The translations under genes were made by a program, and so were the position numbers. From IMG/VR virus record IMGVR_UViG_3300021431_003088: 64,000 nucleotides of DNA; one strand, written 5' to 3'. The notes under the pieces were generated by a model. That model had not been told where the DNA came from. It worked only from the letters and a program-made list of their open reading frames with translations, and did no database searches. Origin of the DNA: a virus. Lineage: Duplodnaviria; Heunggongvirae; Uroviricota; Caudoviricetes. Numbering within the stretch: the stretch's first letter is position 1; each line of letters starts with the position of its first letter. Positions 1,009 through 60,578 of this stretch are shown one piece after another.

Positions 1009-2157
1009 ATGAATAAAGGTATTAGATTTAGGTTATATCCTAATAAAGAACAACAAAACTTAATAAATAAGACTTTTGGTTGTTGTAGGTTAATCTATAA
1101 CAAAGGGCTTGATATGCGTGAAAGGTCTTATAATGCTGGCAATTCTGTTGGCTATAATAAAGCATCCGCTATGCTTACAGAATTAAAATCGCAAGATGAT
1201 TATGCTTTTCTTAAAAAAGTTGATGCTGTCGCCTTGCAACAATCACTTCGAGATTTAGATAACGCATATAGTAGGTTTTATAAAAGAATTGGAAAGCATC
1301 CTAAATTTAGGAGTAAACGAAACATCCAATCATATAGAACAGTTAATACAAGAAATACTATTAGGATTTCTGGCAAGTATATTAGGCTACCAAAATTGGG
1401 CTATGTAAAGTTTAAGCAGTCTATGGAAGTCGGCAACATTAAAAATGCTACTATTGAGCGTACTACAACAGGTAAATATTTTGTTGTATTAAATGTTGAA
1501 TTTGAGCCTGAGCCTAAACGAAACAATGGTGGCTTAATAGGCATTGATGTAGGTATCAAACATTTTTTTACAGATAGTAATGGTAATACGGTATCAAACC
1601 CCAAGTATTTAGAAAAATCAACTAAGCAATTACATAAAGCGCAGCGTAAGTTGTCTCGTATGATAGAAAGCCATATCGTAGGATACAAAAGCAATAGATG
1701 TCCTATTTATGATAAACCCTTAAATGAATGTAGAAATATTCAAAAGCAACGCATTAAATTAGCAAAGATACACGAAAAAATCACTAACCAGCGTAATGAT
1801 TTCTTACAAAAAGAGTCCACTAAACTTATTCGTGAAAACCAAACAATAGTTATTGAAGACTTAAAAGTAAGTAATATGCTAAAGAATAAAAGGTTGGCTA
1901 AATCTATTAGTGATGTATCGTGGTCTAAGTTCTTTGAGATGCTCGAATATAAAGCCTCTTGGTATGGTAACACAATAATAAGAGTAGACACATTCTATCC
2001 AAGTAGCCAAACTTGTACTTGCTGTGGTTATAAAAATACTAAAATTAAAAACCTGCGCATTAGGTCTTGGAAATGTCCTAAGTGCAAAACCATACACGAC
2101 AGAGACATAAACGCAGCAAAGAACATACTAAAACAAGGCATTAAACAAATAGCTTAA
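1009..2157 (+). CDS. tnpB: IS200/IS605-family TnpB (RNA-guided RuvC-like nuclease, OrfB)
   Basis: N-terminus RFRLYPNKEQ; RuvC motifs GIDVGIKHF / IVIEDLKV / DRDINAAKNI; C-terminal CxxC..CxxC zinc finger. Confidence 0.85.
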   Translation: MNKGIRFRLYPNKEQQNLINKTFGCCRLIYNKGLDMRERSYNAGNSVGYNKASAMLTELKSQDDYAFLKKVDAVALQQSLRDLDNAYSRFYKRIGKHPKFRSKRNIQSYRTVNTRNTIRISGKYIRLPKLGYVKFKQSMEVGNIKNATIERTTTGKYFVVLNVEFEPEPKRNNGGLIGIDVGIKHFFTDSNGNTVSNPKYLEKSTKQLHKAQRKLSRMIESHIVGYKSNRCPIYDKPLNECRNIQKQRIKLAKIHEKITNQRNDFLQKESTKLIRENQTIVIEDLKVSNMLKNKRLAKSISDVSWSKFFEMLEYKASWYGNTIIRVDTFYPSSQTCTCCGYKNTKIKNLRIRSWKCPKCKTIHDRDINAAKNILKQGIKQIA

Positions 2158-2380: not shown

Positions 2381-2452
2381 TGCTCTGAGAAGGACTCGAA
2401 CCCTCAAATACAGGGTAGAAACCTGTTGTTTTATCCATTAGACTATCAGAGC
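2381..2452 (-). tRNA. tRNA-Arg(TCT)
   Basis: hand-folded cloverleaf, 72 nt; anticodon loop TTTCTAC; T-loop TTCGAGT. Confidence 0.7.
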
Positions 2453-2455
2453 GTA

Positions 2456-2527
2456 TATCCTCAGTAGGAATCGAACCTACATTGACTGGTTCGTAGCCAG
2501 TCAGTCTATCCATTAGCTTATGAGGAT
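2456..2527 (-). tRNA. tRNA-Arg(ACG)
   Basis: cloverleaf, anticodon loop CTACGAA; T-arm GTAGG-TTCGATT-CCTAC. Confidence 0.7.
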
Positions 2528-2531
2528 AAAA

Positions 2532-2604
2532 AGTAGATGGAGGGAATCGAACCCTCGATATACAGTTTTGCAGACTGTATGCTAAACCAACATAGCACAT
2601 CTAC
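2532..2604 (-). tRNA. tRNA-Cys(GCA)
   Basis: anticodon stem ACAGT/ACTGT, loop CTGCAAA. Confidence 0.7.
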
Positions 2605-2607
2605 ATA

Positions 2608-2678
2608 CAGGAGTGGAAGGAGTCGAACCCTCATTTTTGGTGTTGGAGACCATTGTTTTACCATTAAACTACACTCCT
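2608..2678 (-). tRNA. tRNA-Trp(CCA)
   Basis: anticodon loop CTCCAAC; T-loop TTCGACT. Confidence 0.7.
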
Positions 2679-2687
2679 ATATTTTAC

Positions 2688-2775
2688 CGCCATGAGAAGG
2701 ATTCGAACCTTCGTACCCAATTAAGGATAGCCTTGGATTAGCAATCCAGCACATTACCAGCTCTGTCATCACGGC
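2688..2775 (-). tRNA. tRNA-Ser(GCT), type II with long variable arm
   Basis: 88 nt; anticodon loop TTGCTAA; acceptor GCCGTGA/TCATGGC. Confidence 0.65.
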
Positions 2776-2778
2776 TTA

Positions 2779-2850
2779 CGGGGGTAACGGGACTTGAACC
2801 CATAATATCGCAGTCAAAGTGCGATGTGTTACCAATTACACCATACCCCT
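2779..2850 (-). tRNA. tRNA-Gln(TTG)
   Basis: anticodon stem TCGCA/TGCGA, loop CTTTGAC; D-stem GTGT/ACAC; A1:C72 mismatch. Confidence 0.65.
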
Positions 2851-2874
2851 TCAGTATAATTACATTGTATATAG

Positions 2875-2965
2875 CGCCACCTCTGGGATTCGAACCCAGA
2901 CACCGATTTCTCGGCTACTAACGGTTTTCAAGGCCGCTTCCTTGCGCAATTAGGATTAAGGTGGC
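2875..2965 (-). tRNA. tRNA-Ser(TGA)-like, type II
   Basis: 91 nt; acceptor GCCACCT/AGGTGGC; variable-arm hairpin GCCGA-GAAA-TCGGT; loop CTTGAAA but with C:A at the loop-closing pair. Confidence 0.5.
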
Positions 2966-2999
2966 AAAAAATAAAAGACATTGCAGAATTTGCAATGCC
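2966..2999 (-). terminator. rho-independent terminator inside the tRNA array (hairpin cattgcagaatttgcaatg plus T-run on minus strand)
   Basis: seen in sequence. Confidence 0.45.
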
Positions 3000-3173
3000 C
3001 TGAAATAAACTACTCTTCTACTGATATACAAATTCTACGTTAAAAGATGATATTTTATTGCACCAAAACTAGACCAACGGCAAGATTGCGTTTGGCTTCT
3101 ACTCTGACATCTTTGAGTTTTGTTTATATTAGTTTTTATTGTTTTCATTTCTTTAATTCCTTTCTTCATTATA

Positions 3174-3246
3174 AGCTCCCAGAGGGACTTGAACCCACAA
3201 CATACTGCTTACAAGGCAGTCGCTCTACCATTTGAGCTATGGAAGC
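3174..3246 (-). tRNA. tRNA-Thr(TGT)
   Basis: anticodon stem ACTGC/GCAGT, loop CTTGTAA; the 5' half is nearly identical to the interrupted tRNA at 51249-51352. Confidence 0.65.
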
Positions 3247-3256
3247 ATATTCTTAG

Positions 3257-3330
3257 TGATTCCTGCCAGACTCGAACTGAGCATTTCAGCCTTGAAAGGG
3301 CCGTGTCCTAACCTATTAGACGAAGGAACC
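3257..3330 (-). tRNA. tRNA-Glu(TTC)
   Basis: anticodon loop CTTTCAA; 74 nt. Confidence 0.7.
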
Positions 3331-3338
3331 ATGCTTTA

Positions 3339-3412
3339 GGTGTCAGACGGGATTTGAACCCGCAACATTCGGCTTCACAAGCCGAGGCTCTAGCCAGTTG
3401 AGCTACTGACAC
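3339..3412 (-). tRNA. tRNA-His(GTG)
   Basis: anticodon stem TCGGC/GCCGA, loop TTGTGAA; no encoded G-1. Confidence 0.7.
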
Positions 3413-3414
3413 AG

Positions 3415-3485
3415 TTCGGACTAATGGAATCGAACCATTGTTATCTCCGTATCAGAGAGGTATTCTACCATTGAATTAAGTCCGA
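3415..3485 (-). tRNA. tRNA-Ile(GAT)
   Basis: anticodon stem CCTCT/GGAGA? (CCTCT...GGAGA), loop CTGATAC. Confidence 0.7.
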
Positions 3486-3489
3486 ATAA

Positions 3490-3563
3490 TTGGAATGACT
3501 GGATTCGAACCAGCAACCTCTTGAACCCAAATCAAGTGCTCTTCCAAATTAAGCTACATCCCA
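3490..3563 (-). tRNA. tRNA-Pro(TGG)
   Basis: anticodon stem CTTGA/TCAAG, loop TTTGGGT. Confidence 0.65.
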
Positions 3564-3716
3564 AAACATAAGCTGCAACCAAAATCTAAGGCTTCGAGTA
3601 TGGCTAACTCTTAGGGAATTTAACCCACCCATACAACAACTAGAGTAATTAATTCGTAGCTGTCATATTGAATTTCATAAATGTTCCGGACCATTTACAA
3701 AATCTTGCATCTTTAA

Positions 3717-3790
3717 TAGCGGATGTCGGATTTGAACCGACGTTCTTCTGGTTATGAGCCAGACGAGATAGACCTCTTCTCTAATCCGCA
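3717..3790 (-). tRNA. tRNA-Met(CAT) (elongator, initiator or Ile2 not resolved)
   Basis: anticodon stem TCTGG/CCAGA, loop CTCATAA; T:T mismatch at 1:72. Confidence 0.6.
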
Positions 3791-3865
3791 TAGGGAGTAA
3801 CGGAATCGAACCGTTCATCTTTGGCTTATAAGGCCACTGCATTAAACCTACTATGCTAACTCCCA
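3791..3865 (-). tRNA. tRNA with anticodon TAT (Ile-like, AUA-decoding)
   Basis: perfect T-arm AACGG-TTCGATT-CCGTT, D-stem GCAT/ATGC, anticodon loop CTTATAA; one G:A mismatch at top of anticodon stem. Confidence 0.5.
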
Positions 3866-3866
3866 G

Positions 3867-3940
3867 TGTCCTGTGATGGATTCGAACCACCGCTGCATAG
3901 GGCTTCGACCTATCGCTCTACCTGACTGAGCTAACAGGAC
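3867..3940 (-). tRNA. tRNA-Phe(GAA)
   Basis: anticodon stem ATAGG/CCTAT, loop TCGAAGC (unusual C33). Confidence 0.6.
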
Positions 3941-3944
3941 ATAC

Positions 3945-4017
3945 TCGGTCAGGTGGGAATCGAACCCTACGATTGCACGATTAAAAGTCGTGTGCCATAC
4001 CATTAGGCGACTGACCG
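3945..4017 (-). tRNA. tRNA-Lys(TTT)
   Basis: anticodon stem CACGA/TCGTG, loop CTTTTAA; acceptor CGGTCAG/CTGACCG; weak T-stem. Confidence 0.6.
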
Positions 4018-4084
4018 TTAATATTATGTTTTTGTTTTAGAATACTTTATAAATCGCATAATTTTTACTACCTTTCGTTTTTTC

Positions 4085-4156
4085 CGGGAGCTACAGGATT
4101 CGAACCTGTAACCCTTCGGTTAACAGCCGAATGCTCTACCATTGAGCTAAGCTCCC
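4085..4156 (-). tRNA. tRNA-Asn(GTT)
   Basis: textbook cloverleaf; loop CTGTTAA. Confidence 0.75.
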
Positions 4157-4159
4157 AAA

Positions 4160-4244
4160 TCCCGCTGCTTGGAATCGAACCAAGTTGGCAACTATGTACA
4201 ACAGATTTACAGTCTGCCCCTTCTCCATAAAGGTCTACAACGGG
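4160..4244 (-). tRNA. tRNA-Tyr(GTA), type II
   Basis: 85 nt; anticodon stem GCAGA/TCTGT, loop CTGTAAA; long variable arm. Confidence 0.65.
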
Positions 4245-4311
4245 CTATTAAGTTTACAATAATAATCAACCATATCAATCATCTCCTTTCCATTTCTATC
4301 ATAGGTGTATA

Positions 4312-4397
4312 TACAGGCGGTGAGATTCGAACCCACAAACTATAAAAGAAGTTACTAAATCCTAAGTTTAGCCTCTGTACCATTCGAGTACGCCTGC
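4312..4397 (-). tRNA. tRNA-Leu(TAG), type II
   Basis: 86 nt; anticodon stem CTAAA/TTTAG, loop CTTAGGA; variable arm AACT..AGTT. Confidence 0.65.
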
Positions 4398-4400
4398 TTA

Positions 4401-4484
4401 TACAGCCGACAGGACTCGAACCTGCACACCATTACTGATACCAGAGCTTAAATCTGGTGCGCCTACCATTTACGCCACGGCTGC
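4401..4484 (-). tRNA. tRNA-Leu(TAA), type II
   Basis: 84 nt; anticodon stem CCAGA/TCTGG, loop TTTAAGC. Confidence 0.65.
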
Positions 4485-4553
4485 TTGATTTTAAGTTTTG
4501 TTTAGCAATAATCGCAAGAGTCGCATAGTTAAATTCTCCTTTCATTTATTAAA

Positions 4554-4626
4554 AGTGGATAGTCGGACTCGAACCGACAGCCCAAGATTGGAAGTCTCGT
4601 ATGTTAGCCTTTAACACCATACCCAC
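4554..4626 (-). tRNA. tRNA-Gly(TCC)
   Basis: anticodon stem CGAGA/TCTTG (one GU), loop CTTCCAA. Confidence 0.65.
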
Positions 4627-4690
4627 GCAGGATAAGGAAGTGCCATTCTCTTATCCTTTATATTGTTTTATTAAGAGGCTTAGTGCCTCA

Positions 4691-4761
4691 CGGCTCTATA
4701 GAGAATCGAACTCTAATCTTATGATAGACAGTCATATGTGCTACCTTTACACCATAGAGTC
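4691..4761 (-). tRNA. tRNA-Asp(GTC)
   Basis: anticodon stem TATGA/TCATA, loop CTGTCTA (T37 unusual); A2:C71 mismatch. Confidence 0.55.
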
Positions 4762-4765
4762 ATAT

Positions 4766-18714: not shown

Positions 18715-18795
18715 AATAACCTCCTTACTAACCCTCTTTGCACTTGTGCAAGGGTTTCTTAATAATGACATATTTATATAAGTTGATTTTTTTTG
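18715..18795 (-). repeat. ~75-bp RBS/hairpin/promoter cassette, copy 1 of 2 (second copy 19090..19167)
   Basis: ccttactaaccctct..gtgca.gggtt..taataatg.c.tatttatataagttga shared. Confidence 0.5.
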
Positions 18796-19089: not shown

Positions 19090-19167
19090 ATTTTTCCTCC
19101 TTACTAACCCTCTGCACTCGTGCAGGGGTTTTTTAATAATGTCTTATTTATATAAGTTGAAAAAAAG
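19090..19167 (-). repeat. RBS/hairpin/promoter cassette copy 2
   Basis: see 18715..18795. Confidence 0.5.
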
Positions 19168-24171: not shown

Positions 24172-26304
24172 TTACTGTAAGTACCTTTGCAATAGTCTTG
24201 ATAGTGTTTTAGCCATTTGTGACATATCTGTTATATTCATATATCTTTGGAGTCCGTATATGTCTTTTATGGCTTCTTTATCATCACCTATTGCTCCCAC
24301 AAATGTGTTCACACCCTTTCTTTTCAAGTAAGAAAGTTGATGCCGAATATCGGCTTTTACTTTCGCATCTTCCCCATAATAAAAGGGAAGTGAATTTCCA
24401 CTTGTGTCTATACTTGTAGAGTCACGTGGTTCTCCGTCCGAGAGAATAATGAGCAATTTATTTTCCTCTCTTCTTTTTGAGAGATGTTCACCAAGTAATT
24501 TGATCGGCAGACCATCTCTGTTGTCATAACAATACGATCTTAGGTATGTGAGCCTTTCAATGTCCTGCTTTGTAGTTTTATCGAACTCACAGAACACATT
24601 TAGATGGTTCTCGCCATTATCATAGGCTACACCATGTCCCCATATTGCAAGAGGGATATTCAATCCCTTGCAGGCCTCATACATTGTTATGCAGGCTTTT
24701 TGCAAGTAATTTTCCCTTGCATATTGAGCCATGCTTCCCGATTGGTCGGCAAGTATAGCTACCGCAAGTTTTCGCTCTTCCGAGGGCAACTCTTCTTTCT
24801 GCATCATCTTCCCGTCTTGTGAACTTATCTTTGAACGACAGATTGAGTCGCCAAAAAAGATACCTTCTTCTAGACAATCTTCTTCTCGAAACAATGGTGA
24901 TAGGTTTTTCTTGATATTATTTATACTCTTTTTCTGAGCTCTAATAATACCTTTTGCATCAACCCCGCCTTCACCATATATTTCGTTTAGTTCTGCAAAA
25001 TTGTCTGTATTGACTTTTATGATGCAATCTTTATGGATTTCATCCATTTTTACTTTTGAGATTTCTTTTAAAATCTCTTTTTTGAGTTTACTCGCCTCTT
25101 TAGCCTCTCTAAGTGCGCCTACCTCTTCCTTCAAGTCTAGAGGTTTTGACATTTCCTCGGCTTCTTTACGAAGAGATTCTATATTGTAAAGACTATTTTC
25201 GTCTTCTGATATTTCTTCTCTTCTTTTTGCCGAATCACTTGTCATTTTTTCAAGTCTCTCTTGTTCTTCTTCTGATAATTCTTCTTCACCTCCTGTGGTT
25301 GTTTCTTCTGCTTGTGAAGAATCCTCATTTTCTGAAGAATTTTTATCATCCGGCTCGTTTTCAGAGCTTGGCTCGCTTTTAGGGTTTGAGTCGCTTTTGG
25401 AGCTTGAATCGCTTTCAGAATCCGACTTTCCTTCATCTTTTTGATTTAGAGCATCCCCAATGAGCGGAAATGCATGGACTATAATGCCGTTAATTAGTTG
25501 CTGTCTCACAGATGAGTCATCTGTCTTAACTGCTTCTTCTAAATATGGCCTTATATCGTCTGCAAACTCATTAAATTCTGTATCAAAAAGATGTCCGTCA
25601 GAGTCACATCTGACGATTTCAAAACAGATACTTTTAACTTTTTGAATTGGAGAGATATGTATATCCATAAGTCTCTCAATTTCTAGTTCTTTATCTGTTT
25701 TTTTAAGTTTTGTTCTGCACAATTCAACAGCTTTCTTTGCGTCTCCTGTAAAATGTGCTTTGACCTTACCTTCCATCCACTCATCATCAATGATGTTGTC
25801 TAGCTCACTCGATAGGTTTTTTACAGCTATACGAGCATACTTTGACTCCTTCATTAATTTGTTGAGTTTTTGAAGGTTTACTCTATCCCCACTAAGGAGC
25901 TTTGGTTTTTCATAAAACTCTCCTTCTTCTAGAAGGGTTCTGCACATATTACCAAGAGCAACGAAGTCTGTATATCTTACATGCCCTGCCTCATGTGCAA
26001 CGAGGCCGTTTAGGATAAGCAACCTCTCCTCATCATCCTTGCTTTCATCAATAAATCTGTTTGCAAGGTTGATGTAGATGGCTCTACCATCTGTGTAGGC
26101 TAATCCCTTTTTTATTTCCTTAATTCTCATTGCAGTTCCATATTTGAATCCGCAAATAAAATTAGAAATGTTTCTTAGAATCGCCATTCCGTTTAGTTCT
26201 TCTTTAAAGAACTTTATAAAATCTTTCATACACTCCTCCTTTCGTGTTTTGAAAAAGCAAATTGCTACTATAATGTCTTTCTTATATAAGTTGAAAAAAC
26301 TCAT
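24172..26304 (-). CDS. large protein with N-terminal zincin-like motif (HEAGHVRY), central acidic/Ser-rich low-complexity region and C-terminal VWA domain (MIDAS DQSGSM)
   Basis: motifs seen in translation; resembles DUF2201_N metallopeptidase-like + VWA architecture. Confidence 0.6.
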   Translation of the reverse strand: MSFFNLYKKDIIVAICFFKTRKEECMKDFIKFFKEELNGMAILRNISNFICGFKYGTAMRIKEIKKGLAYTDGRAIYINLANRFIDESKDDEERLLILNGLVAHEAGHVRYTDFVALGNMCRTLLEEGEFYEKPKLLSGDRVNLQKLNKLMKESKYARIAVKNLSSELDNIIDDEWMEGKVKAHFTGDAKKAVELCRTKLKKTDKELEIERLMDIHISPIQKVKSICFEIVRCDSDGHLFDTEFNEFADDIRPYLEEAVKTDDSSVRQQLINGIIVHAFPLIGDALNQKDEGKSDSESDSSSKSDSNPKSEPSSENEPDDKNSSENEDSSQAEETTTGGEEELSEEEQERLEKMTSDSAKRREEISEDENSLYNIESLRKEAEEMSKPLDLKEEVGALREAKEASKLKKEILKEISKVKMDEIHKDCIIKVNTDNFAELNEIYGEGGVDAKGIIRAQKKSINNIKKNLSPLFREEDCLEEGIFFGDSICRSKISSQDGKMMQKEELPSEERKLAVAILADQSGSMAQYARENYLQKACITMYEACKGLNIPLAIWGHGVAYDNGENHLNVFCEFDKTTKQDIERLTYLRSYCYDNRDGLPIKLLGEHLSKRREENKLLIILSDGEPRDSTSIDTSGNSLPFYYGEDAKVKADIRHQLSYLKRKGVNTFVGAIGDDKEAIKDIYGLQRYMNITDMSQMAKTLSRLLQRYLQ
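26281..26302 (-). promoter_or_regulatory. conserved phage promoter motif copy
   Basis: cttatataagttgaaaaaactc. Confidence 0.45.
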
Positions 26305-26320
26305 AATAAGAATATGTTAC

Positions 26321-26376
26321 GATTTTGAACTTATATATATATGTAGTTATTGGTAGAGCAAATGTTTGCTCTCTTT
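26321..26376 (+). promoter_or_regulatory. promoter/operator region of sigma factor gene; contains 18-bp perfect palindrome AGAGCAAATGTTTGCTCT
   Basis: near-identical 54-bp copy (2 mismatches) on the minus strand at 42279-42334. Confidence 0.55.
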
Positions 26377-26394
26377 TTCGTTAGGAGGTGTTTT

Positions 26395-26931
26395 ATGACG
26401 GAAAAAGAAGTGGAAAGGCTTTTTGCCGAAACCGTTCCTCTCATAAAGAGAATGGCTAACTTTAGCGTTTATAAGACATACAAGATTAGTTCGATTTATG
26501 TAGAGGAATTTGAGTCTGTTTGTAGGCTCTCTTTCGTTAAAGCAATAAGAGGCTTTGATGAAACACAAAATGTTGATTTTTCAACATATTTTGTGACTAT
26601 TGCTAGAAGAGATATTCATAGGGAGGCAAAGAAAATCCTAAAAAGAAAGGAATGTGCCTACTTAGATAATCTTTCTGGCAAGACTACTTGCGTTGAGGAC
26701 GATGTAGTAAAATCTGACATAGAATTATGTCTTGAAGAACTATCAGAAAGTGCCAAGAGCAAGCGTGTGAAACAAGGAGCGAAAGCTCTTCTGTTACAGG
26801 CAGAAGGCTATACCTTAGACGGTATAAGCCATGAAATGAAACTAAAAAGAAGTGTGGTTGATAAGTATATGAGTGTTGCTAAGCAATTCATAAGAAATAA
26901 CTACACTTTAGAGAGTTTCAAAACCGCATAA
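26395..26931 (+). CDS. sigma-70 family RNA polymerase sigma factor (region 2 + region 4 HTH)
   Basis: region 2-like FSTYFVTIARRDIHR; C-terminal HTH LLQAEGYTLDGISHEMKLKRSVVDKYMSVAKQ; RBS AGGAGGTG before ATG at 26395. Confidence 0.7.
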   Translation: MTEKEVERLFAETVPLIKRMANFSVYKTYKISSIYVEEFESVCRLSFVKAIRGFDETQNVDFSTYFVTIARRDIHREAKKILKRKECAYLDNLSGKTTCVEDDVVKSDIELCLEELSESAKSKRVKQGAKALLLQAEGYTLDGISHEMKLKRSVVDKYMSVAKQFIRNNYTLESFKTA

Positions 26932-34836: not shown

Positions 34837-34935
34837 AATTTTTCTCCTTTCTGTTTACTAGTGCAATAAATGTTTTCAAATGCAAACCTACATATATATT
34901 ATATCCATTTCATTGAAATATACATACGTTTTTAT

Positions 34936-39829: not shown

Positions 39830-40030
39830 TGCTTCTTCTTCTTTTCTAGTTTTTCTAATCTAACATTGGTAACACTTTGTTCTACTTTCATTTCATCGAG
39901 TTCGGCCTTCATGTCGATTATTTCTCGTCTTAATTGCCTCATTTCGTTTCTCATTTTCTTATACTTTAAATCTTGTTGATCCATTTTAAACCTCTATATT
40001 CCCTAAACTTTTAGAAAATAAATTTTTCTA

Positions 40031-40059
40031 CATTATTTATATAAGTGTAGTGCGAAGTT
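40031..40059 (-). promoter_or_regulatory. conserved phage promoter motif, extended subclass
   Basis: tatataagtgtagtgcgaagtt. Confidence 0.45.
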
Positions 40060-40084
40060 TCAAGAATTAACAAAATACTGGTAA

Positions 40085-40386
40085 GAACCTTGTATTTATG
40101 CGGATTTAGAGTAAATGAAAAACCCTTCTTTGAAAAATAAATAATATTTTTTAAGAAATTTTTACGGATTTCAGTGAATTATGACAAGTAATAAGTAGGG
40201 AGGAAAATTTTTTTCAGAAAAAAGTACGGAAATAGGTATGCAGTAGGACATATCTTTAATGAAGGAGAAAAAACTTTGGTGGAAACATCATAAATTTTGC
40301 AAGTAATAATTAGAAAGGCGGTGATCAAGTTGAGGGTATGAAATAAATAGTAGCAACAAGTAATAATAAGTAGGAGGATAAGAAAT
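40085..40386 (+). repeat. degenerate ~65-100-bp tandem repeats in the leader of gene 40387 (acgga(t/a)tt.. + caagtaataa.aagtagg.agga x3) with mini-ORFs
   Basis: seen in sequence. Confidence 0.4.
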
Positions 40387-40977
40387 ATGGATAAGGATAT
40401 TAGAACAGAGATGGAAAATATTTACAGAAGAATTAAAGCAAAAGAGGAAGAAGAAAGAATGGAAATTGACAGCATAAACGAAAGTTTGAATAAATTACTA
40501 ACAGACGAAGAACATTACCCATTAAGTAAAGGCTACGCTGAAGTGTTTAAACCATTAGTAGATAAGGTTAATAATGGCGAATTTGGTAGGAGTGGCACGG
40601 AAAAGAAACACATAATAGAATTTGTATTAGATTTTATTGAATTTGCGATAGATAAGATAGATTATAGTCTTGAGGATAGCCTAGTTAGGGGCTATGTGGC
40701 TACTGATTTACAAAAGGCTAACAAGAACCTATCTACACGAATAGAACTCATTCTAGAAGCGTATAGAGGCTTTGTAGACAGCCCTAGAGGTAGCGAACTT
40801 GATATAGGTGCTTTCTTTACATACCAAGAAGATTTCTACAAGGGTTATATGGAACTAGATGAAGAATATTATGATGAATATAACAGGTTTATATTACTTT
40901 CTTATTTTGAGAATAGGTTGCTTTGTCACTATCAGAAGAGTGTGTTTTTTGAAGTACACGAATTAATATTTCAATAA
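40387..40977 (+). CDS. hypothetical protein (plus-strand island)
   Basis: ORF track; RBS GTAGGAGGATAAG upstream. Confidence 0.5.
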   Translation: MDKDIRTEMENIYRRIKAKEEEERMEIDSINESLNKLLTDEEHYPLSKGYAEVFKPLVDKVNNGEFGRSGTEKKHIIEFVLDFIEFAIDKIDYSLEDSLVRGYVATDLQKANKNLSTRIELILEAYRGFVDSPRGSELDIGAFFTYQEDFYKGYMELDEEYYDEYNRFILLSYFENRLLCHYQKSVFFEVHELIFQ

Positions 40978-41019
40978 TGACACGAAGCCTAGAAAAACAT
41001 TTAGCAGCAACAATGTTTT

Positions 41020-41065
41020 GGTACTAACCGTATAGAAAAAACAAGACATCTATGCTATAATATAT
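41020..41065 (+). promoter_or_regulatory. sigma70-like promoter with extended -10 TGCTATAAT (41053-41061)
   Basis: followed by ~180-nt leader with hairpins (aaacatt..aatgttt; ccctagta..tactaggg). Confidence 0.45.
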
Positions 41066-41247
41066 ATGTAATTATAGGAGTTTTGGGAACGATAGTAAGT
41101 AATACATCATATATTGTTGTGTATATTTGGTGATATAATTATTTACTATAATTATATAGGGATTGCCCTAGTAACTTATTTATACTAGGGTAGGCGAATG
41201 CTTTCTCTAGTTTTATATAGATAAAATATAAAGAAAGGAGAGAGCGT

Positions 41248-41439
41248 ATGGAGGTGATTGAAGTGCGTAATAAAATCAAACCGTACAAAGGAAGATGGTG
41301 TCCTCGTTCAATCGCAAACGAGATAAATGATATGTTTTATAATGCGCAAAAACCAGATAGGACAGCTCTTGAAAAAGAATCTCAAGAATACCTAAACTAT
41401 CTTAGAGCAAAGAAATTATCTCGCACCGCAAGTAATTAA
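41248..41439 (+). CDS. small protein, candidate antitoxin-like partner of the downstream GNAT gene
   Basis: 63 aa; stop/start separated by 1 nt from 41441. Confidence 0.45.
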   Translation: MEVIEVRNKIKPYKGRWCPRSIANEINDMFYNAQKPDRTALEKESQEYLNYLRAKKLSRTASN

Positions 41440-41440
41440 T

Positions 41441-41998
41441 ATGAGAATACTTGAAGATGAATTTTTCTACTTAAAACACCTTGAAGAAATAGACGATTTG
41501 TCTGAATTTTCATCAAAGAAGGGATACGGATTAGAATATTATTTAAAAAATAATGCTCTTGGCGAAGAAAAAGCCAATATTTCCAGAACATACCTTGTTT
41601 TAAGTAAGGAAACAGAAAAAATTGTTGCTTATTTTACTTTAAGAACAGGTTTAATTACAATAAGCAGAGGATTTTTAAGAGGATTTGACACTTACACAGG
41701 TATCGAATTATCAAATTTTGCAGTAAATGATAATTATGATGAAAAAATCGAAAATATACCTAAGTTCGGTAGCCATATCTTCTTCCAGTTTGTATTGCCA
41801 CTCGTAAGAAAAATTGGTGAACTTGTAGGAGCATATTGTCTTTATATTTATGCTCTGCCATCCAATAAATTAATGGCACATTATCAAACAATGGGGTTTA
41901 CTATGACCTCGAAGCGTGTTGAAAGATATATTTATAGACACGTAAAGCCTTATTATGATAAAGGCTGCAGATTTATGTATCAAATTATTGATTCATAA
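41441..41998 (+). CDS. GNAT-family N-acetyltransferase (toxin-like architecture)
   Basis: R..G..G/A-like acetyl-CoA motif RKIGELVGAY, C-terminal YALP..KLMAHYQTMGF; tight coupling to upstream small ORF. Confidence 0.5.
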   Translation: MRILEDEFFYLKHLEEIDDLSEFSSKKGYGLEYYLKNNALGEEKANISRTYLVLSKETEKIVAYFTLRTGLITISRGFLRGFDTYTGIELSNFAVNDNYDEKIENIPKFGSHIFFQFVLPLVRKIGELVGAYCLYIYALPSNKLMAHYQTMGFTMTSKRVERYIYRHVKPYYDKGCRFMYQIIDS

Positions 41999-42007
41999 AG
42001 TATTCTA

Positions 42008-42036
42008 GCGTCACAGAATGTGGCGCTTTTTTTTAT
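42008..42036 (+). terminator. rho-independent terminator gcgtcacagaatgtggcgc + T8
   Basis: seen in sequence. Confidence 0.55.
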
Positions 42037-42065
42037 TGCGTGATCATATTTTGAGAACAGGTTAC

Positions 42066-42112
42066 ATTAAAAAAGAGGGAAGATCACACCATTGTGTAAT
42101 TCATCCCTCTTT
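42066..42112. terminator. bidirectional compound hairpin agagggaag..cttccctct flanked by A/T runs
   Basis: seen in sequence. Confidence 0.45.
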
Positions 42113-42280
42113 TATGGCTGATTTTAGTGTTGTCTGCCAACGGTTCCACATTTTTAATGCGAAATACTGTACGGATTATTCAGTGTTGTCCGCCAACGGG
42201 TATTTTAAATACCAATAGTACAGATTAAGATGTCAGCCACATCATAGGGAATGTCCCACTGGGGATATTCCAATTAAGAG
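42070..42280 (-). ncRNA. candidate ~200-nt non-coding RNA transcribed from the duplicated sigma-gene promoter copy
   Basis: no ORF >8 codons downstream of promoter copy; 19-bp direct repeats AGTGTTGTCYGCCAACGG at 42128 and 42181; ends at hairpin terminator. Confidence 0.35.
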
Positions 42281-42334
42281 AGCAAACATTTGCTCTACCA
42301 ATAGCTACTTATATATATAAGTTCAAAATCGTAG
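42279..42334 (-). promoter_or_regulatory. second copy of the sigma-gene promoter/operator (palindrome AGAGCAAATGTTTGCTCT)
   Basis: 52/54 identical to 26321-26376. Confidence 0.55.
42308..42331 (-). promoter_or_regulatory. promoter motif copy overlapping the duplicated region
   Basis: cttatatatataagttcaaaatcg. Confidence 0.4.
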
Positions 42335-42341
42335 TATATTC

Positions 42342-42692
42342 TTAGTCTTTTATTTTCTGATTCACCTTATCAAACACTGCCTTAAAGTAAACACCCTCGT
42401 AGTCTTTTTGTCTCTCTTCTTCTGTCTTTTCGCCAAAATGCTCTGGCGATATTCTTAGGGATAGAATACTCTCTAGCACTCTACCAGTTCTATTAGCCTC
42501 AATAGCGTTATAGACAACCTCATCAAAGTTATCGAGGATAACCTTTTCGCATTTATCCTTTGGTCCTTTACCATAGATAAAACCTGATTCATCTTCTCCT
42601 ATTCTAATTTCGCCTTTGAGCGCATGTAAGATTTCCTCTCTATCATATAATTTTGCTTGCTGAAAGCTAATTCCGCTTCCATATTTACTCAT
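42342..42692 (-). CDS. hypothetical protein, candidate partner (toxin-like?) of Panacea-domain protein
   Basis: 8-nt overlap with upstream gene. Confidence 0.45.
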   Translation of the reverse strand: MSKYGSGISFQQAKLYDREEILHALKGEIRIGEDESGFIYGKGPKDKCEKVILDNFDEVVYNAIEANRTGRVLESILSLRISPEHFGEKTEEERQKDYEGVYFKAVFDKVNQKIKD

Positions 42693-43188
42693 ATAAGTCC
42701 TCCTTAAAATACTCTCTTATTGCATCTATTGTAATTTCATTATTCATGTTTTGCTGATATGCGTTTTTCCACGTATCTTGGTTATGCGTTAATGTAACAA
42801 GTGATGTGGCGGAATAATTAGAAAAAGTATCTATTACTTCTCTTATTCTTTTTTTGTCTTTATCAGATATATTGTTATCATCAAAATACTCACGTTCTGA
42901 ATCCCATATATTATCATAATTTATTCTCATAATAGATTTCATTGTAGGGATATTTGTACTTCCAAATCTTCTATATTCGTAATATGCTCTAGGAACAACA
43001 GGTCCAAAATTCCAAGCCTCTATTTTGTCACCAAAACACGGTCTTTTTCTTTGTGTATTGATTAAAAAATATGCTTGAATGAAATACAATATTTTTTGGA
43101 GTTTTAGATTTGAAATGCCATACCCCTTATTGTTACTATATTCTATAGCATATCTACAAACTTCTAATACATCATATGGTTCTTTCAT
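42685..43188 (-). CDS. Panacea-domain (DUF4065 / SocA / GepA-like) protein
   Basis: NLKLQKILYFIQAYF...IEAWNFGPVVPRAYYEY matches the KLQKLLYYAQ...AW.YGPV.P..Y core. Confidence 0.6.
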   Translation of the reverse strand: MKEPYDVLEVCRYAIEYSNNKGYGISNLKLQKILYFIQAYFLINTQRKRPCFGDKIEAWNFGPVVPRAYYEYRRFGSTNIPTMKSIMRINYDNIWDSEREYFDDNNISDKDKKRIREVIDTFSNYSATSLVTLTHNQDTWKNAYQQNMNNEITIDAIREYFKEDLYE

Positions 43189-43735: not shown

Positions 43736-44053
43736 TTACAAACACATTATGTCTTTTAACTTTTTTTTCATATCCTTTTGTCCGTCTGCATATCCTTTTC
43801 TATATAGATATGTTTTTTCAAAACCAGTGTTAGTTGACGATGGTGTGTATTTCTGTATGCAATTTGGTATGATTACATTATCTCGTGATATATTAAATAT
43901 ATCGCATATACCCGAAAACACATACGCTGGCATTGACTGAGTGCCATTTTCATAGGAAAGGTATGTCGTATAGGGTACACCTAATTCTTCTGCCAAGTCC
44001 TTTTTTGATAAACCGTAATCTTTTCTTAATGCATTTATTGTTTTCTTAATCAA
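43736..44053 (-). CDS. XRE-family helix-turn-helix transcriptional regulator
   Basis: LRKDYGLSKKDLAEELGVPYTTYLSYENG. Confidence 0.65.
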   Translation of the reverse strand: MIKKTINALRKDYGLSKKDLAEELGVPYTTYLSYENGTQSMPAYVFSGICDIFNISRDNVIIPNCIQKYTPSSTNTGFEKTYLYRKGYADGQKDMKKKLKDIMCL

Positions 44054-48253: not shown

Positions 48254-48300
48254 TAGTTGCTCCTATACTTCTTTAGGCTTATTAGCTCGTTCTTTTCTCT

Positions 48301-48627
48301 CTAACAGTTGCAAATGTTTGCATTTTCATAATAGCCTTTTATGTCTTGTGAGTTTTTTGATAAGTAATCAGCAATATCTTTTAGTTGAAATGCTACATAT
48401 TGAGGGCTTTCTTCTGAGTGTATTAAATCAGCAAGGAGCCTATTAGTTCTCGTGATAAGATAATTACATTTTTTGCAACAATATCTTGGATTTTCGTCTG
48501 TATATTTGTCATATTCTTTATGCAGTCCGTTATCATAAGGATTGCAAGCATCCTCTGTTATGCTGTTACAGTATACGCATCTTATTTCTTTCATATCTCC
48601 TGAATCGGCCTCGCTTTCATTGCACAT
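48301..48627 (-). CDS. Cys-rich hypothetical protein
   Basis: ORF track. Confidence 0.45.
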   Translation of the reverse strand: MCNESEADSGDMKEIRCVYCNSITEDACNPYDNGLHKEYDKYTDENPRYCCKKCNYLITRTNRLLADLIHSEESPQYVAFQLKDIADYLSKNSQDIKGYYENANICNC

Positions 48628-48902: not shown

Positions 48903-49055
48903 TTATTTGCTTGGCTTATTAGATTGTTCTTTTCTCTCTAGCCGTTGCAAATCTTTTAACCAGCCACTTGTTATTTTGTATTCAGCACTTCTTTTATCTT
49001 TCAACTTTTTCTTTTTTGCTTTAAGTTTCTCAATAAGCTCTTGTCTAATCGTCAT
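48903..49055 (-). CDS. small basic protein (start trimmed to MTIRQELIEK)
   Basis: RBS AAGGAAG before ATG at 49055; the longer track ORF would overlap the MTase gene. Confidence 0.3.
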   Translation of the reverse strand: MTIRQELIEKLKAKKKKLKDKRSAEYKITSGWLKDLQRLERKEQSNKPSK

Positions 49056-51248: not shown

Positions 51249-51352
51249 AAGCTCCTAGCAGGACTTGAACCTGCAACAAGTTGTTACCAGCAATACACCT
51301 TCGGTATATTGCATACTACAAGGCAACTGCTCTACCGTTTGAGCTATAGAAG
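51249..51352 (-). tRNA. tRNA-Thr(TGT)-like gene interrupted by a ~31-nt hairpin-forming insert in the anticodon region (intron-like or disrupted)
   Basis: acceptor GCTTCTA/TAGGAGC, D-arm GCTC-AAACGGT-AGAGC, T-arm GCAGG-TTCAAGT-CCTGC are perfect; 5' half matches tRNA-Thr at 3174-3246; insert contains 10-bp stem GCAATATACC-GAA-GGTGTATTGC. Confidence 0.55.
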
Positions 51353-51362
51353 CGATTGGAAT

Positions 51363-51666: not shown

Positions 51667-51753
51667 TGCAGGCGTGTATAATATTTGCTTTTGCAAACTC
51701 ACATATATATTATATTCGTTTTTAAAAAAATCACATACGTTTTTTAAAAGTTT

Positions 51754-52239
51754 TTAATAAAATCTGTATTTGTTATTTGGTGACGATTTTACTTGCATCG
51801 GTGTAGCGTAACCTTCCTTTAATAGGCGGTAGTTTAGCATATTTTCTTTATTAGAGGTATCTTCGTTCAACCACACATAAGCTAGTGTTCTTCCGTACTT
51901 ATCTTCTTTTTCACTATCATACTCAAGATACAGCGTTGTCGTACCCTGCAATATGTCTTTTGTGTGGTTAGAAGCCTCTTCTCCCTCTTTGGTATTCTTG
52001 CTTTCGTCTGGATGCACTGACTCAGGCGTGTCTATACCTATTAGGCGCACAGTCTTCTCTTCACCATTCTTATTTACCACAATGGTGTCACCATCTTTTG
52101 CTCTTACATATGTTACTTTGTCTAGTTCAGATGGGGTTGGATTTTGATAAGGAAGTTTTCCTTGAAAATATAGATATGTTAATCCTGCTATTATAATAAG
52201 AATTATTATAATGATTATTGGTTTGGTTTTTCTTTTCAT
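51754..52239 (-). CDS. thermonuclease (staphylococcal-nuclease-like) with N-terminal membrane anchor; start trimmed to MKRKTKP
   Basis: VRLIGIDTPE...GRTLAYVW...NYRLLKEGYA. Confidence 0.7.
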   Translation of the reverse strand: MKRKTKPIIIIIILIIIAGLTYLYFQGKLPYQNPTPSELDKVTYVRAKDGDTIVVNKNGEEKTVRLIGIDTPESVHPDESKNTKEGEEASNHTKDILQGTTTLYLEYDSEKEDKYGRTLAYVWLNEDTSNKENMLNYRLLKEGYATPMQVKSSPNNKYRFY

Positions 52240-53169: not shown

Positions 53170-54975
53170 CTAAAGTTCTTCTGGGAGAATTTGCTTTACG
53201 CAACAATCCCAAGTTCTCTCCTGCTCCTCTAGGTCCTGTAGTGAGGTTCTGGCAATCAATGTTAATCTGCAGCTTTCTCTTAAAGAAAGGTCTGAGTTCA
53301 TGTATGCCTTTACCCACGACACAAAGCCTCTTGGATCAATGATTCCGTCACCGCCTGCGTCATCACAAATGGCATTTTCTTTTAGATATTTTACTATCTC
53401 TAAGAAATACCCTGCCATCTTTTCAACCTTATACTCATCAGCCTTCTTGAGATTTACTTTTTTCATAGCTCTCTCAACAAGTTCTGATTTTCTAATGTTT
53501 GATAGTGCAATCACGCCGTCCATTCTTGATAAAACAGATTGGTTCATTGCTCTACAACCATTGTAAGAAATATTGGTTGTTAAGATGATAATGCTCTTTT
53601 CGTGACGAGAAATCATCTCGCCTGTTGCCACCTTTATTTTCTCGTTATCATCGAGTAATGAATTTAAGGCAACTAGCACGGCTGGTTTTGCGATTGCTGT
53701 TGGTTCTTGGATTTCAACAACACTTGGCTGTCTTATTCCTTTTACCAACTCGGACTCTACGAACTCAAATGCACTGTTGGAGTGGTCATAATTCTTAATG
53801 AATGAATAGCACTCTTGTTCAGTTACATCTTTGTTGTAAACCCCTGTCACAATCTCCATCCAACTTGGAGCGTCAAGTTTTATCAGCTCTAATTGAGCTA
53901 ACGCAGCTTGATACCTACTCTTTTCCTCTGCGTTTGTTTGCTTAGGAATAATAGATAAGAGTAGTGAAGATTCGTCTGTTTTCTCCGAACAGACATAGAA
54001 CCTGTATGGCAAACCAAGTATACATGCCACCTGCATAGCGATTGTTGATTTACCTGTTCCTGAAGGGCCATACAATAATAGGTTGTTTCCCACAAATGTT
54101 GCGGAGTCAAGCGCTCTGATGAGCGTATCTGTTACAACCCATTCGTCCTTCCACTTCGGAACTTTTGTCTTCTCCTCCGCTGTAAGTCTTGGCACTTTAA
54201 AAGCCTTACGGTACTTGTCTTGCAGGGCTTTTACTAATGCTTTTGTTTTATCGTCTTTTCCCTTGCTTTTAGCGGTTGATTTAGTTGAGGTTGTTGCCTT
54301 CTTAGAAGAGTCTTTAACCTTTATTCTTTTAGGTACTTCTAAGGACTCAATGAGGTCTTTAATCTTTTCTTCTGGGCATCCTTCCAGTTGTTCAAAAAGC
54401 ATTTCCCTTGTAAGCAAAGGGATTTGCTTATTTTTAATGTTTTGGAATGAGTATATCTTTCCATACATTCTATAAAGGAAGTCTGATTTTATACAGAGTT
54501 CTACTCCTGTGATGAACGGCTCGTCGAACAAAACCTTTTCCAGTTCCTTGTATTCGGGTGGGTTTGTGTGCTTTATCCATTCATATGCAGCTATGCTCAA
54601 CAGTGAACCAGCACTTTTTCCAGCCTTAGACCCACCACCTATTAACTCAGGATATTTTTGGAAGCATCCCGCTTCATCTATCTCGGCAGCATAGGCGTTC
54701 TGTCCGTCATAGGTCACTATTCGCTTTATTTTATCTCTCCAAACTTTAATTTTTTGAAAAGCGAACATTCTTTGGCTTGCGGAATCGTAGTAGCCACTCC
54801 ATAAACCATCAAATCCCCTTCTTAGCGGTGGAAATACCGCACATTCTTTTTGAGGCATTTTTACCTCAAATTTCTCGTACAGACGCTCTAATTCTTTTGG
54901 CATCTCTATCCTTACAGAATCCTCTAATCCGTAAGTATATTTGTTGAAAAATTCATATTTTTCCATATTTTTCAC
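53170..54975 (-). CDS. AAA-family ATPase (AAA_5 / MoxR-CbbQ-like) with basic Lys/Ser/Thr-rich linker
   Basis: Walker A LLLYGPSGTGKST; 601 aa. Confidence 0.65.
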   Translation of the reverse strand: MKNMEKYEFFNKYTYGLEDSVRIEMPKELERLYEKFEVKMPQKECAVFPPLRRGFDGLWSGYYDSASQRMFAFQKIKVWRDKIKRIVTYDGQNAYAAEIDEAGCFQKYPELIGGGSKAGKSAGSLLSIAAYEWIKHTNPPEYKELEKVLFDEPFITGVELCIKSDFLYRMYGKIYSFQNIKNKQIPLLTREMLFEQLEGCPEEKIKDLIESLEVPKRIKVKDSSKKATTSTKSTAKSKGKDDKTKALVKALQDKYRKAFKVPRLTAEEKTKVPKWKDEWVVTDTLIRALDSATFVGNNLLLYGPSGTGKSTIAMQVACILGLPYRFYVCSEKTDESSLLLSIIPKQTNAEEKSRYQAALAQLELIKLDAPSWMEIVTGVYNKDVTEQECYSFIKNYDHSNSAFEFVESELVKGIRQPSVVEIQEPTAIAKPAVLVALNSLLDDNEKIKVATGEMISRHEKSIIILTTNISYNGCRAMNQSVLSRMDGVIALSNIRKSELVERAMKKVNLKKADEYKVEKMAGYFLEIVKYLKENAICDDAGGDGIIDPRGFVSWVKAYMNSDLSLRESCRLTLIARTSLQDLEEQERTWDCCVKQILPEEL

Positions 54976-55022
54976 CCTCCTTTAGCGAAAAAATAAGACC
55001 CTTTCGAGTCTGACCAACAATA

Positions 55023-55046
55023 CATATTTATATAAGTTGAAAAAAA
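55023..55046 (-). promoter_or_regulatory. conserved phage promoter motif copy
   Basis: catatttatataagttgaaaaaaatt. Confidence 0.45.
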
Positions 55047-55049
55047 TTA

Positions 55050-55090
55050 ATTTTTGTATGTATTTTTTTTAAAATAGACTATAATATATA
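55050..55090 (+). promoter_or_regulatory. sigma70-like promoter (-10 TATAAT 55080-55085; class CTATAATATATAT) of plus-strand island gene
   Basis: seen in sequence. Confidence 0.4.
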
Positions 55091-55231
55091 TGTAAGGATA
55101 AATAATTGAAAAGTTTTGGTGTGGTCGTTCCTGCGGGGATACTGCACCTTTTTGTGTGCCTACATTGATAACTGAATATTGAGAACGGCTTACTGGTCGT
55201 TATAAAAAATATTTCACAGGAGGTAATTATT

Positions 55232-56336: not shown

Positions 56337-56390
56337 TCTTATTTATATAAGTTGAAAATAAAAAAAAAGAGAGTCTTTCGACTCTCCATT
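56337..56390 (-). repeat. promoter motif + terminator hairpin gagagtctttcgactctc cassette, copy 1 (copy 2 at 59196..59243)
   Basis: about 45 bp near-identical. Confidence 0.5.
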
Positions 56391-56399
56391 TTGCTGTTA

Positions 56400-59195: not shown

Positions 59196-59243
59196 CTTTT
59201 TATATAAGTTGAAAATAAAAAAAGAGAGTCTTTCGACTCTCCT
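59196..59243 (-). repeat. promoter motif + terminator cassette copy 2
   Basis: see 56337..56390. Confidence 0.5.
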
Positions 59244-59251
59244 TTTTCTGC

Positions 59252-60189: not shown

Positions 60190-60236
60190 TGCTTCCAATA
60201 AAAAAAGAAAGAGGTAATTTCTACCTCTTTCTTTAG
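60190..60236. terminator. bidirectional terminator hairpin agaggtaatttctacctct immediately 3' of tmRNA
   Basis: seen in sequence. Confidence 0.5.
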
Positions 60237-60578
60237 TGGACTAGAGGGGAGTCGAACCCCTGTCCAAAAACCAATCCCCGACTCTTCTACGAGCGTAGTT
60301 TGTTATTTAGATTTCCCTCAACAACCCGAGAACAAACACCCTGATTATCTCAGTAGCTTCATGATACGTACATATATGCAAAGCTTAGTATATGCCGTTT
60401 CCTACATAGTTTGAAGCCTTAATCCTAAAGTGTAGGTGCGATAGGTAAGACTAGCTGCAACTAGGCAACTAATGCTAATTTCTCGTCGTTAGCAATTAAA
60501 TTTAATTTTGCCACTTTACGTATGACGCACGGCTCGCTTCTTTCGCTTCATGCTCCCTGTCGAAACCATTACTAGCCC
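60237..60578 (-). ncRNA. ssrA: tmRNA (SsrA); proposed tag ...ANDEKLALVA, possibly AKLNLIANDEKLALVA
   Basis: 5' GGGCTAG..ATGGTTTCGACAGGG pairs with 3' T-arm GGGGTTCGACTCCCC-TCTAGTCCA(CCA encoded); in-frame GCA AAA ...GCT AAC GAC GAG AAA TTA GCA TTA GTT GCC TAG resembling E. coli ANDENYALAA and B. subtilis layout. Confidence 0.7.

Follow-up and report, generated by a model that had tools for sequence, protein, structure and literature searches.

What is the role of a perfect 18-bp palindrome that lies directly upstream of a sigma-70-family gene and recurs on the opposite strand of the same DNA? In the stretch analysed here (64,000 nucleotides of viral DNA, hereafter the window), the preliminary description had read the palindrome as the binding site of a dimeric repressor that co-regulates the sigma factor and a second transcription unit. 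The present analysis favours a duplicated cassette composed of a promoter and a leader stem-loop, in which copy 1 is native to the sigma gene and copy 2 is a paralogue at the edge of an inserted block. The probability of this reading is estimated at about 0.6.

The sigma locus comprises the following features:

26307..26375 (+), copy 1 of the repeat (I1), the putative promoter-leader cassette of the sigma gene; same in four independent assemblies
26329..26343 (+), promoter-like family core ACTTATATATATATG (positions 1-15), whose conserved G at 26343 probably marks the transcription start
26347..26353 (+), TTATTGG, a conserved block that separates core from hairpin and could be either an alternative -10 element or the initially transcribed region
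26355..26372 (+), palindrome, read as a leader stem-loop of 7-8 bp and about -8 kcal/mol
26373..26380 (+), U-run CTTTTTCG 3' of the hairpin, in copy 1 only, the repeat ending at 26375
26395..26931 (+), sigma-70-family gene, 178 aa, domains sigma2 and sigma4; ATG at 26395, RBS AGGAGG at 26383-26388
26231..26306 (-), putative divergent class A promoter and leader of a 685-aa VWA/CobT-like gene; core 26291-26283

The 54-nt string quoted in the preliminary description was placed at 26321-26374, and the palindrome AGAGCAAA-TG-TTTGCTCT was exact in both copies. The second copy was found on the minus strand at 42279-42334 with 2 mismatches in that span, as had been claimed. The full inverted repeat proved longer than first noted, pairing 26307-26375 (+) with 42344-42276 (-) over 69 nt with 94% of positions identical; no longer repeat, and no other long inverted one, occurs in the window. 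All four mismatches between the copies (26316, 26317, 26342, and 26347) lie 5' of TATTGG, and the last 28 nt of the repeat contain none. A search for the palindrome that tolerated up to 3 mismatches recovered these two sites and no others, where chance predicts 0.16. The search for further copies that had been suggested returned none beyond the two in the 74 kb examined, including none in an extra 9.6 kb of the replicon. In metagenome and genome collections, the 18-mer gave just chance matches or ordinary terminators of unrelated organisms.

An assembly artefact, which had been named as a ground for rejecting the duplication, does not account for it, because each copy is found in independent assemblies. 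Contigs that span copy 1 and its two flanks came from SRR873597, SRR873600, JGI 3300002641, and a 96.3%-identical variant from SRR20324753, and contigs that span copy 2 and its two flanks from ERZ12302815 and JGI 3300002641. The contigs of SRR873597, SRR873600, JGI 3300002641, and ERZ12302815 match the window at 100% identity, and the copy-specific differences are kept in every assembly that spans a copy. A low-coverage independent contig (L005, ERZ12302851) ends exactly at the last base of copy 2, window position 42276, which is consistent with a branch of the assembly graph there.

The assignment of the adjacent gene to the sigma-70 family was borne out. Its 178-aa product scored 26.5 bits against the Pfam Sigma70_r2 model (cut-off 24) and matched the sigma70-ECF superfamily model TIGR02937 over the full length, but weakly. 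The AlphaFold model was confident (pLDDT 86.6) with two domains, and all of the top 50 Foldseek matches in the PDB were sigma factors. By these profile and structure predictions, the product is a sigma-70-family protein with sigma2 and sigma4 helical domains. An exhaustive HMMER search revealed 3 meaningful relatives among 1.8 billion representative proteins, and by sequence the sigma factor is almost an orphan. The gene is inverted with respect to its conserved neighbours (the VWA, primase-like, and helicase genes) in the window, whereas in the syntenic scaffold L071 (10001-10513) it is co-oriented with them. The leader of the VWA/CobT-like gene has its own small hairpin, AGCAA-T-TTGCT, followed by a T-run.

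In its 5' half, the repeat is a member of a promoter-like family that has more than 20 sites in 64 kb and takes the form ttttCA-ACTTATATA-aataaG (ttttSA-ACTTATATA-wAwAwG with ambiguity codes). With up to 3 mismatches, the string TTGAACTTATATATATA was matched at 14 sites where 1.07 would be expected. The conserved block runs uninterrupted from -8 to 15, with the A of ACTTATATA as position 1, and closes with a nearly invariant G. Three classes were distinguished. Class A comprises about 16 sites in gene orientation (tatttTCaACTTATATAAAnAaG), with an RBS and ATG 25-70 nt downstream and often a terminator directly before. Class B carries AACTTCGCACTAC directly upstream of the shared ACTTATATA core and may represent a different temporal or sigma class, while class C consists of the two repeat copies themselves. 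Further members occur in the extra flank and in the relatives, and most family sites adjoin genes that have no family match. One class B copy precedes a topoisomerase gene. The class B sites are:

823, 17847, 35737, 40046, and 51653 in the window, all (-)
17073 (+) and 18603 (-) in the flanking contig L069

The position of the transcription start was approached through class B site 35737, where the RBS occupies positions 18-23; the RNA there must therefore begin no later than about position 17, before the hairpin position is reached. On this basis, the AT-rich core may be a -10-like element with the conserved G at or near +1. Canonical sigma-70 hexamers (TTGACA/TATAAT-like, 16-18 nt apart, with A2 and T6 of the -10) were not found. 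A canonical reading, TTGAAC, 17 nt, and TATTGG, lacks the final T of the -10 and is not reported by the consensus scan, which gave 3 matches, fewer than the shuffle expectation of 6.0. A sigma-70-style start from these hexamers would count against the leader-hairpin model, since transcription would begin inside the left arm and the RNA would lack the full hairpin.

Other recurring intergenic elements were also observed. A third motif, TATAATATATATGT, contains a perfect TATAAT and occurs at 34889-34927, 51698-51757, 55037-55096, and about 41055-41069, upstream of some minus-strand genes and of the few that run against the prevailing orientation; the sites may be promoters of the host-sigma-A type. 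Several further intergenic segments with promoter, leader, or terminator character (D3, D5, D6, D8, and D9) are duplicated over 31-51 nt at 88-100% identity, among them:

54963-54993 and 61508-61538
18736-18786 and 19110-19160
48276-48319 and 48913-48956
56357-56392 and 59212-59247

To judge from their sequences, the 69-nt repeat is one among several putative paralogous regulatory cassettes.

The palindrome starts 12 nt 3' of the conserved G (position 24/27 in family numbering), and this position is shared with other members of the family. A hairpin of -6 kcal/mol or lower with its 5' end at positions 23-29 was present at 10 of the 16 class A sites, compared with 16.5% of 400 random minus-strand positions (binomial P=4.5e-5). 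The ten hairpins are unrelated to the palindrome in sequence, and some contain G.U pairs or compensatory changes. Copy 1 is collinear with the class A units 55037, 61583, and 60171, the common order being core, ATGTAnT..TGG, nAGA[stem-loop]TCT, T-run, CG(C/T)TA, and RBS. Their stems are AGACTC/GAGTCT, AGACTC/GGGTCT, and AGACAC/GTGTCT, respectively; the second contains a U.G wobble that pairs solely in the gene-sense RNA, and the third a compensatory change from T-A to A-T. Likewise, units 18783 and 19157 carry TTGCAC/GTGCAA and CTGCAC/GTGCAG. In a MAFFT alignment of the leaders, the 3' arms of different hairpins fell into different columns.

A T-run follows many of the family hairpins, that of copy 1 among them. 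Between its promoter-like core and the RBS, copy 1 has a 7-bp stem with 3 G-C pairs and, within 2 nt, the U-rich tract, and a scan tool labelled its palindrome with the tail CTTTTTCGTT as terminator-like. The stem is modest in strength, however, and the sigma leader as a whole is not more stable than shuffled sequences (z=-0.8), which counts against the leader-hairpin model.

The architecture of the sigma leader was compared with two informative orthologues, L071 (a 65-kb scaffold) and L073:

Window copy 1: core ACTTATATATATATG; linker TAGTTATTGGT; hairpin AGAGCAAA-TG-TTTGCTCT; tail CTTTTTCG..AGGAGG
L071, sigma 38% identical: core AACTTATATATAAAAG; linker ACATTATTGAC; hairpin AGAGCTTA-TGTAAG-TAAGCTCT; tail TTTTCC..AAGGAGG
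L073, sigma 31% identical: core CCTTATATATAAAAG; linker AAGTTATTGGCT; hairpin AATACCTTGCGG-ACAA-CCGTATGGGTATT; tail TTATTTTAC..AAGGAGG

L071 is syntenic with the window, having topoisomerase, AP-endonuclease, primase-like, RecD2 helicase, VWA, and DUF4314 genes in common, and carries a terminator upstream of its sigma promoter core. Both orthologous leaders keep the core, TTATTG, the hairpin position, the U-run, and the RBS; CTTATATATA.A.G is invariant in both, TTATTG is invariant in 4 of 4 aligned leaders, and the hairpins begin 12-13 nt after the conserved G. The hairpins themselves differ. In L071 the outer 5 pairs are kept while two inner pairs are swapped in a compensatory manner (AAA/TTT to TTA/TAA), and the centre measures 6 nt compared with 2 nt in the window. 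L073 has an unrelated 12-bp hairpin in the same place, followed by TTATTTTAC. Pairing is therefore maintained in L071, as in the paralogues, despite diverging sequence. Such a hairpin was present at only 2 of 11 plus-strand family promoters of L071, a further point against the model. In L074, a fourth relative of the sigma factor, the gene lies within an operon and accordingly lacks a leader.

Variation among close strains points in the same direction. In the 96% variant, the 134 nt from 26249 to 26382, which span the divergent promoters and the cassette, contain 0 substitutions, while the flanking genes differ by 3.5-3.9%. With a Poisson probability of about 0.007, this was counted as probable purifying selection on the cassette region.

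These comparisons bear directly on whether the palindrome is a DNA operator at which a dimeric repressor, for example of the XRE type, co-represses the sigma gene and a second unit. A dyad-symmetric site within the 14-20 bp range does lie at a promoter-like element: the dyad is perfect (8+8), is the same in both copies with all inter-copy mismatches outside it, and directly adjoins the core. The outer half-site bases AGAGC/GCTCT are shared by the window and L071 in spite of the 38% protein identity and could reflect sequence-specific recognition. In addition, the shorter core AGCAA-N-TTGCT is mildly enriched, with 5 occurrences where 1.2 would be expected and four of these located in 5' regions, and the neighbourhood contains HTH genes. 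In an operator, however, both the sequence of the half-sites and the distance between them should be fixed, and they are not. That distance is 2 nt in the window but 6 nt in L071, and at the AGCAA/TTGCT sites it ranges from 1 to 6 nt; L073 and ten sister promoters have unrelated hairpins at the place of the palindrome, one of them with a G.U pair, and U-runs come after the hairpins. No more operator-like sites were found in 74 kb, and none upstream of the XRE operon, while loose dyads numbered 18 against 12.3 in shuffled sequences. The proposed regulator (43736-44053) is a genuine HTH_3 protein, but it has no orthologue beside the sigma gene of L071, the HTH gene located there not being orthologous (E=0.015). 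The repressor-operator explanation is thus distinctly unlikely, and weaker than that of a leader stem-loop. The stem changes seen in the orthologues favour the latter, as they are the pattern expected if the stem-loop is transcribed, whether as an attenuator- or terminator-like structure or as a 5' stabiliser.

Co-regulation of two units, the other part of the earlier proposal, was upheld in part. Two transcription units probably share one control region, because the repeat, with its promoter-like element, lies upstream of the sigma gene and is truly duplicated. Copy 2, on the other hand, precedes no gene. Its surroundings are as follows:

42276..42344 (-), copy 2 of the repeat; core 42322-42308, palindrome 42296-42279, then CTTAATTGG and no U-run
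42069..42275 (-), ORF-free stretch of about 207 nt, ending in a strong hairpin and T-run at about 42113-42069
39996..42362, block of 2.35 kb that L075/L076, a relative of ~90% identity, lacks

The stop codon of a 116-aa gene marks the start of copy 2. No U-run follows its hairpin, as the base of the hairpin is also the end of the repeat. A putative transcript counted from 42308 would be 239 nt long. The stretch downstream contains no minus-strand ORF above 22 aa, gave no Rfam match even at E<=10, and has no homologue in phages, IMG/VR, or the relatives, the short matches to relatives being at noise level and equal to those of control loci. Its folding z-score was -6 with the terminator and -2.4 without, against a genome-wide mean of about -2. 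The idea of a highly structured non-coding RNA downstream of copy 2 was consequently weakened, the value of -6 coming mostly from the terminator. On the minus strand, 200-nt windows are on average about 2 SD more stable than shuffled sequences, and many coding windows at 55-62 kb have z < -7; because windows fold stably so broadly, folding z-scores alone are poor evidence for non-coding RNA in this genome. Within the stretch, AATACC..GCGGACAAC resembles the hairpin of the L073 sigma leader (1563-1592), which could be chance or a trace of common ancestry.

A functional small RNA, co-expressed with the sigma factor from copy 2 and acting in trans on it or its regulon, was also considered. Such an RNA would have the same promoter and leader as the sigma gene, in a defined unit that runs from the cassette to the strong terminator, and it would contain a duplicated 18-mer, CCGTTGGCrGACAACACT, whose two copies lie 56 nt apart (42182-42199 and 42126-42143, minus strand; 0.03 expected). 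The lack of matches in Rfam and of homologues in the collections just named argues against it, and the complementarity to the sigma initiation region was not outstanding, ranking 21 of 123 in a duplex prediction whose output was of limited quality. The unit is, moreover, missing from the 90% relative, and a role of this kind is very unlikely.

The boundaries of the inserted block were defined by blastn, in which L075 7205-7547 corresponds to window 42706-42363 and L075 7556-7714 to 39995-39836. Homology to L075/L076 thus continues through the 116-aa gene to 42363 and restarts at 39995. Within the block are three plus-strand genes (40387-41998) and the class B promoter at 40046, besides copy 2, the ORF-free stretch, and terminators. 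One edge of the block lies 18 nt from the start of copy 2, and the class B site is just inside the other; this is a single case, two other indels having no cassette at their edges. In total, three clean gene-block indels distinguish the window from L075 within 8 kb (47228-44067, 43729-42707, and 42362-39996), the 2.35-kb block being one of them, and the region is regarded as hyperplastic. A gene for a Panacea/SocA-domain antitoxin-like protein (42685-43188, minus strand) overlaps the start of the 116-aa gene (42342-42692, minus strand). L075 lacks the Panacea gene as well as two small ORFs, and there a 112-aa homologue directly follows the XRE HTH gene; since the arrangement there differs, the toxin-antitoxin partnership differs between the strains.

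From this arrangement and by analogy with shuffled cassettes elsewhere, copy 2 is probably a by-product of cassette-mediated shuffling. In a stronger form, the inverted copies would be no more than recombination substrates, either allowing inversion of the 15.9 kb between them or leaving copy 2 as an inert relic beside functionless junction DNA. The position of copy 2 inside a strain-specific indel, in a region with two more, agrees with this, as do the absence of an ORF after it, the unexceptional folding of the stretch once its terminator is removed, the contig that ends exactly at the repeat end, and the reversed orientation of the sigma gene relative to L071; the cassettes of T4-type phages also behave like recombination substrates (PMC2839356). 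Inverted junctions were nevertheless seen neither in the four samples that cover copy 1 nor in the two that cover copy 2, and a search of the 102 window proteins revealed no member of an invertase or recombinase family. Inversion would not alter what each promoter drives, both promoters being inside the repeats, and copy 2 keeps the core, TTATTGG, and palindrome intact. A purely recombinational explanation is therefore considered unlikely. An invertible segment of the Hin/Gin type was rejected separately: inverted repeats are present, but no recombinase is found among the 102 proteins and a single orientation is seen in six assemblies.

The element that carries the repeat has 35% G+C, an array of 21 tRNAs and a tmRNA (tag ANDEKLALVA) on the minus strand (2381-4762 and 60236-60578), and about 95% of its ~120 window genes on the minus strand. 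Such tRNA arrays and tmRNA are translation-related RNAs that are usually linked with jumbo phages. The DNA adjoining the window on its left carries genes for a Rep_3 initiator and ParA (L069 11460-14296) as well as for a RecG-like helicase, SSB, and a Sak recombinase, and the replicon (at least 119 kb) is considered plasmid- or phage-plasmid-like because of these flanking genes. No structural phage genes were seen in the 74 kb examined. Collections of phages, plasmids, and IMG/VR records yielded no close relative of the replicon: phage searches by megablast and blastn, and searches of IMG/VR with the sigma, VWA, and helicase proteins, a 25-mer, and an RNA motif, returned nothing. Distant VWA homologues occur in conjugative-element contexts and are uninformative.

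Some further features of the window were recorded. An Rfam tRNA match of 104 nt and 53 bits at 51250-51353 (-), not called by ARAGORN, lies downstream of the class-B-like promoter 51653 and could be an intron-containing or otherwise unusual tRNA. Two IS605-family TnpB-like genes with OrfB_IS605 and Cas12f1-like TNB domains are located at 1009-2157 (+) and 62294-63496 (-), and an IS110-type transposase signature occurs elsewhere. RNA-guided transcription by dCas12f and sigma-E (PMC12259090) was considered and rejected, as the TnpB-like genes lie 24 and 35 kb from the sigma gene with nothing linking them.

Taken together, the favoured reading of a promoter and leader stem-loop would work as follows. 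The contiguous core would serve as a -10-like element, and RNA synthesis would begin at the conserved G or close to it. The TTATTGG block and then the palindrome would follow and be transcribed, the latter folding as a 5'-proximal stem-loop. At the sigma gene, the stem-loop and U-run would form a promoter-proximal attenuator or weak intrinsic terminator, or possibly a 5' stabiliser, that sets or gates expression, and the cassette would be the native and conserved control region of the gene. Copy 2 would have arrived, or helped the 2.35-kb block to arrive, by recombination between cassettes; if active, it would yield only the 239-nt ORF-free RNA, which would stop at the strong terminator. The cassette itself is routine regulatory anatomy. 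It gives a concrete promoter and leader model for an uncharacterised replicon of ~120 kb with 21 tRNAs, a tmRNA, and plasmid-type replication genes, and it teaches that a perfect palindrome beside a promoter is not an operator by default.

Among known systems, the operators of Cro/CI/XRE-type repressors resemble the locus in having an 18-bp perfect dyad beside a promoter, here at two loci. They differ in that neither spacing nor sequence is conserved in the orthologues, no other operators are found, and no cognate regulator is conserved. The ermC and aprE leaders are 5'-proximal stem-loop mRNA stabilisers of Bacillota, and like them the sigma leader has a stable hairpin near its 5' end, upstream of a strong RBS. 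Known 5' stabilisers sit within a few nt of the 5' end, whereas the predicted distance here is about 12 nt.

Promoter-proximal terminators combined with antitermination are found in lambdoid phages, for example lambda PR'-tR'/Q, and the hairpin and U-run between promoter and first gene are similar in position. A second parallel is the conAn antitermination systems of Gram-positive conjugative elements (PMC8191782), which likewise concern many terminators in a mobile element of a Gram-positive host. The leader (TTATTGG and the AGAGC-stem hairpin) could also be the loading or recognition site of an element-encoded antitermination or RNA-binding factor that coordinately gates the sigma factor and a 239-nt regulatory RNA; the core ACTTATATA..G at more than 20 promoters would then be a recognition sequence resembling a Q-binding element or read by a dedicated sigma factor. 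If true, a tRNA- and tmRNA-bearing replicon family would run its gene programme through promoter-proximal attenuation. Against these parallels, no antiterminator protein or RNA was found in the element, and the hairpin, with about -8 kcal/mol, is weak and its termination predicted. The proposal of a loading site is highly doubtful.

The closest parallel is provided by the PeSLs (promoter-early stem-loops) of T4-type phages, intergenic composites of a promoter and a stem-loop that are repeated in hyperplastic regions and act as promoters, terminators or attenuators, and substrates of modular shuffling (Arbiol et al. 2010, PMC2839356; Comeau et al. 2014, PMC4122927). PeSLs are intergenic composites of about 70-100 bp with promoter, stem-loop, and SD/ATG; here the same parts lie within about 100 bp. 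Many copies occur where small orphan genes abound, the stem-loop is predicted to serve as a terminator or attenuator, and in one case a copy stands at a strain-specific indel boundary. There is no sequence homology between PeSLs and the present cassettes, and the carrier is a low-GC Rep_3/ParA plasmid- or phage-plasmid-like replicon rather than a T4-like myovirus. The core is a contiguous 20-nt block instead of -35/-10 hexamers, the stem-loop occupies a fixed position downstream of it, and recombination of the cassettes is putative, as read from sequence. The present cassette is thus comparable to a PeSL in its predicted promoter and terminator activities, yet it is not a PeSL member. The idea of mobile promoter and stem-loop cassettes that mark module boundaries would thereby be carried from T4-type phages to a very different low-GC element.
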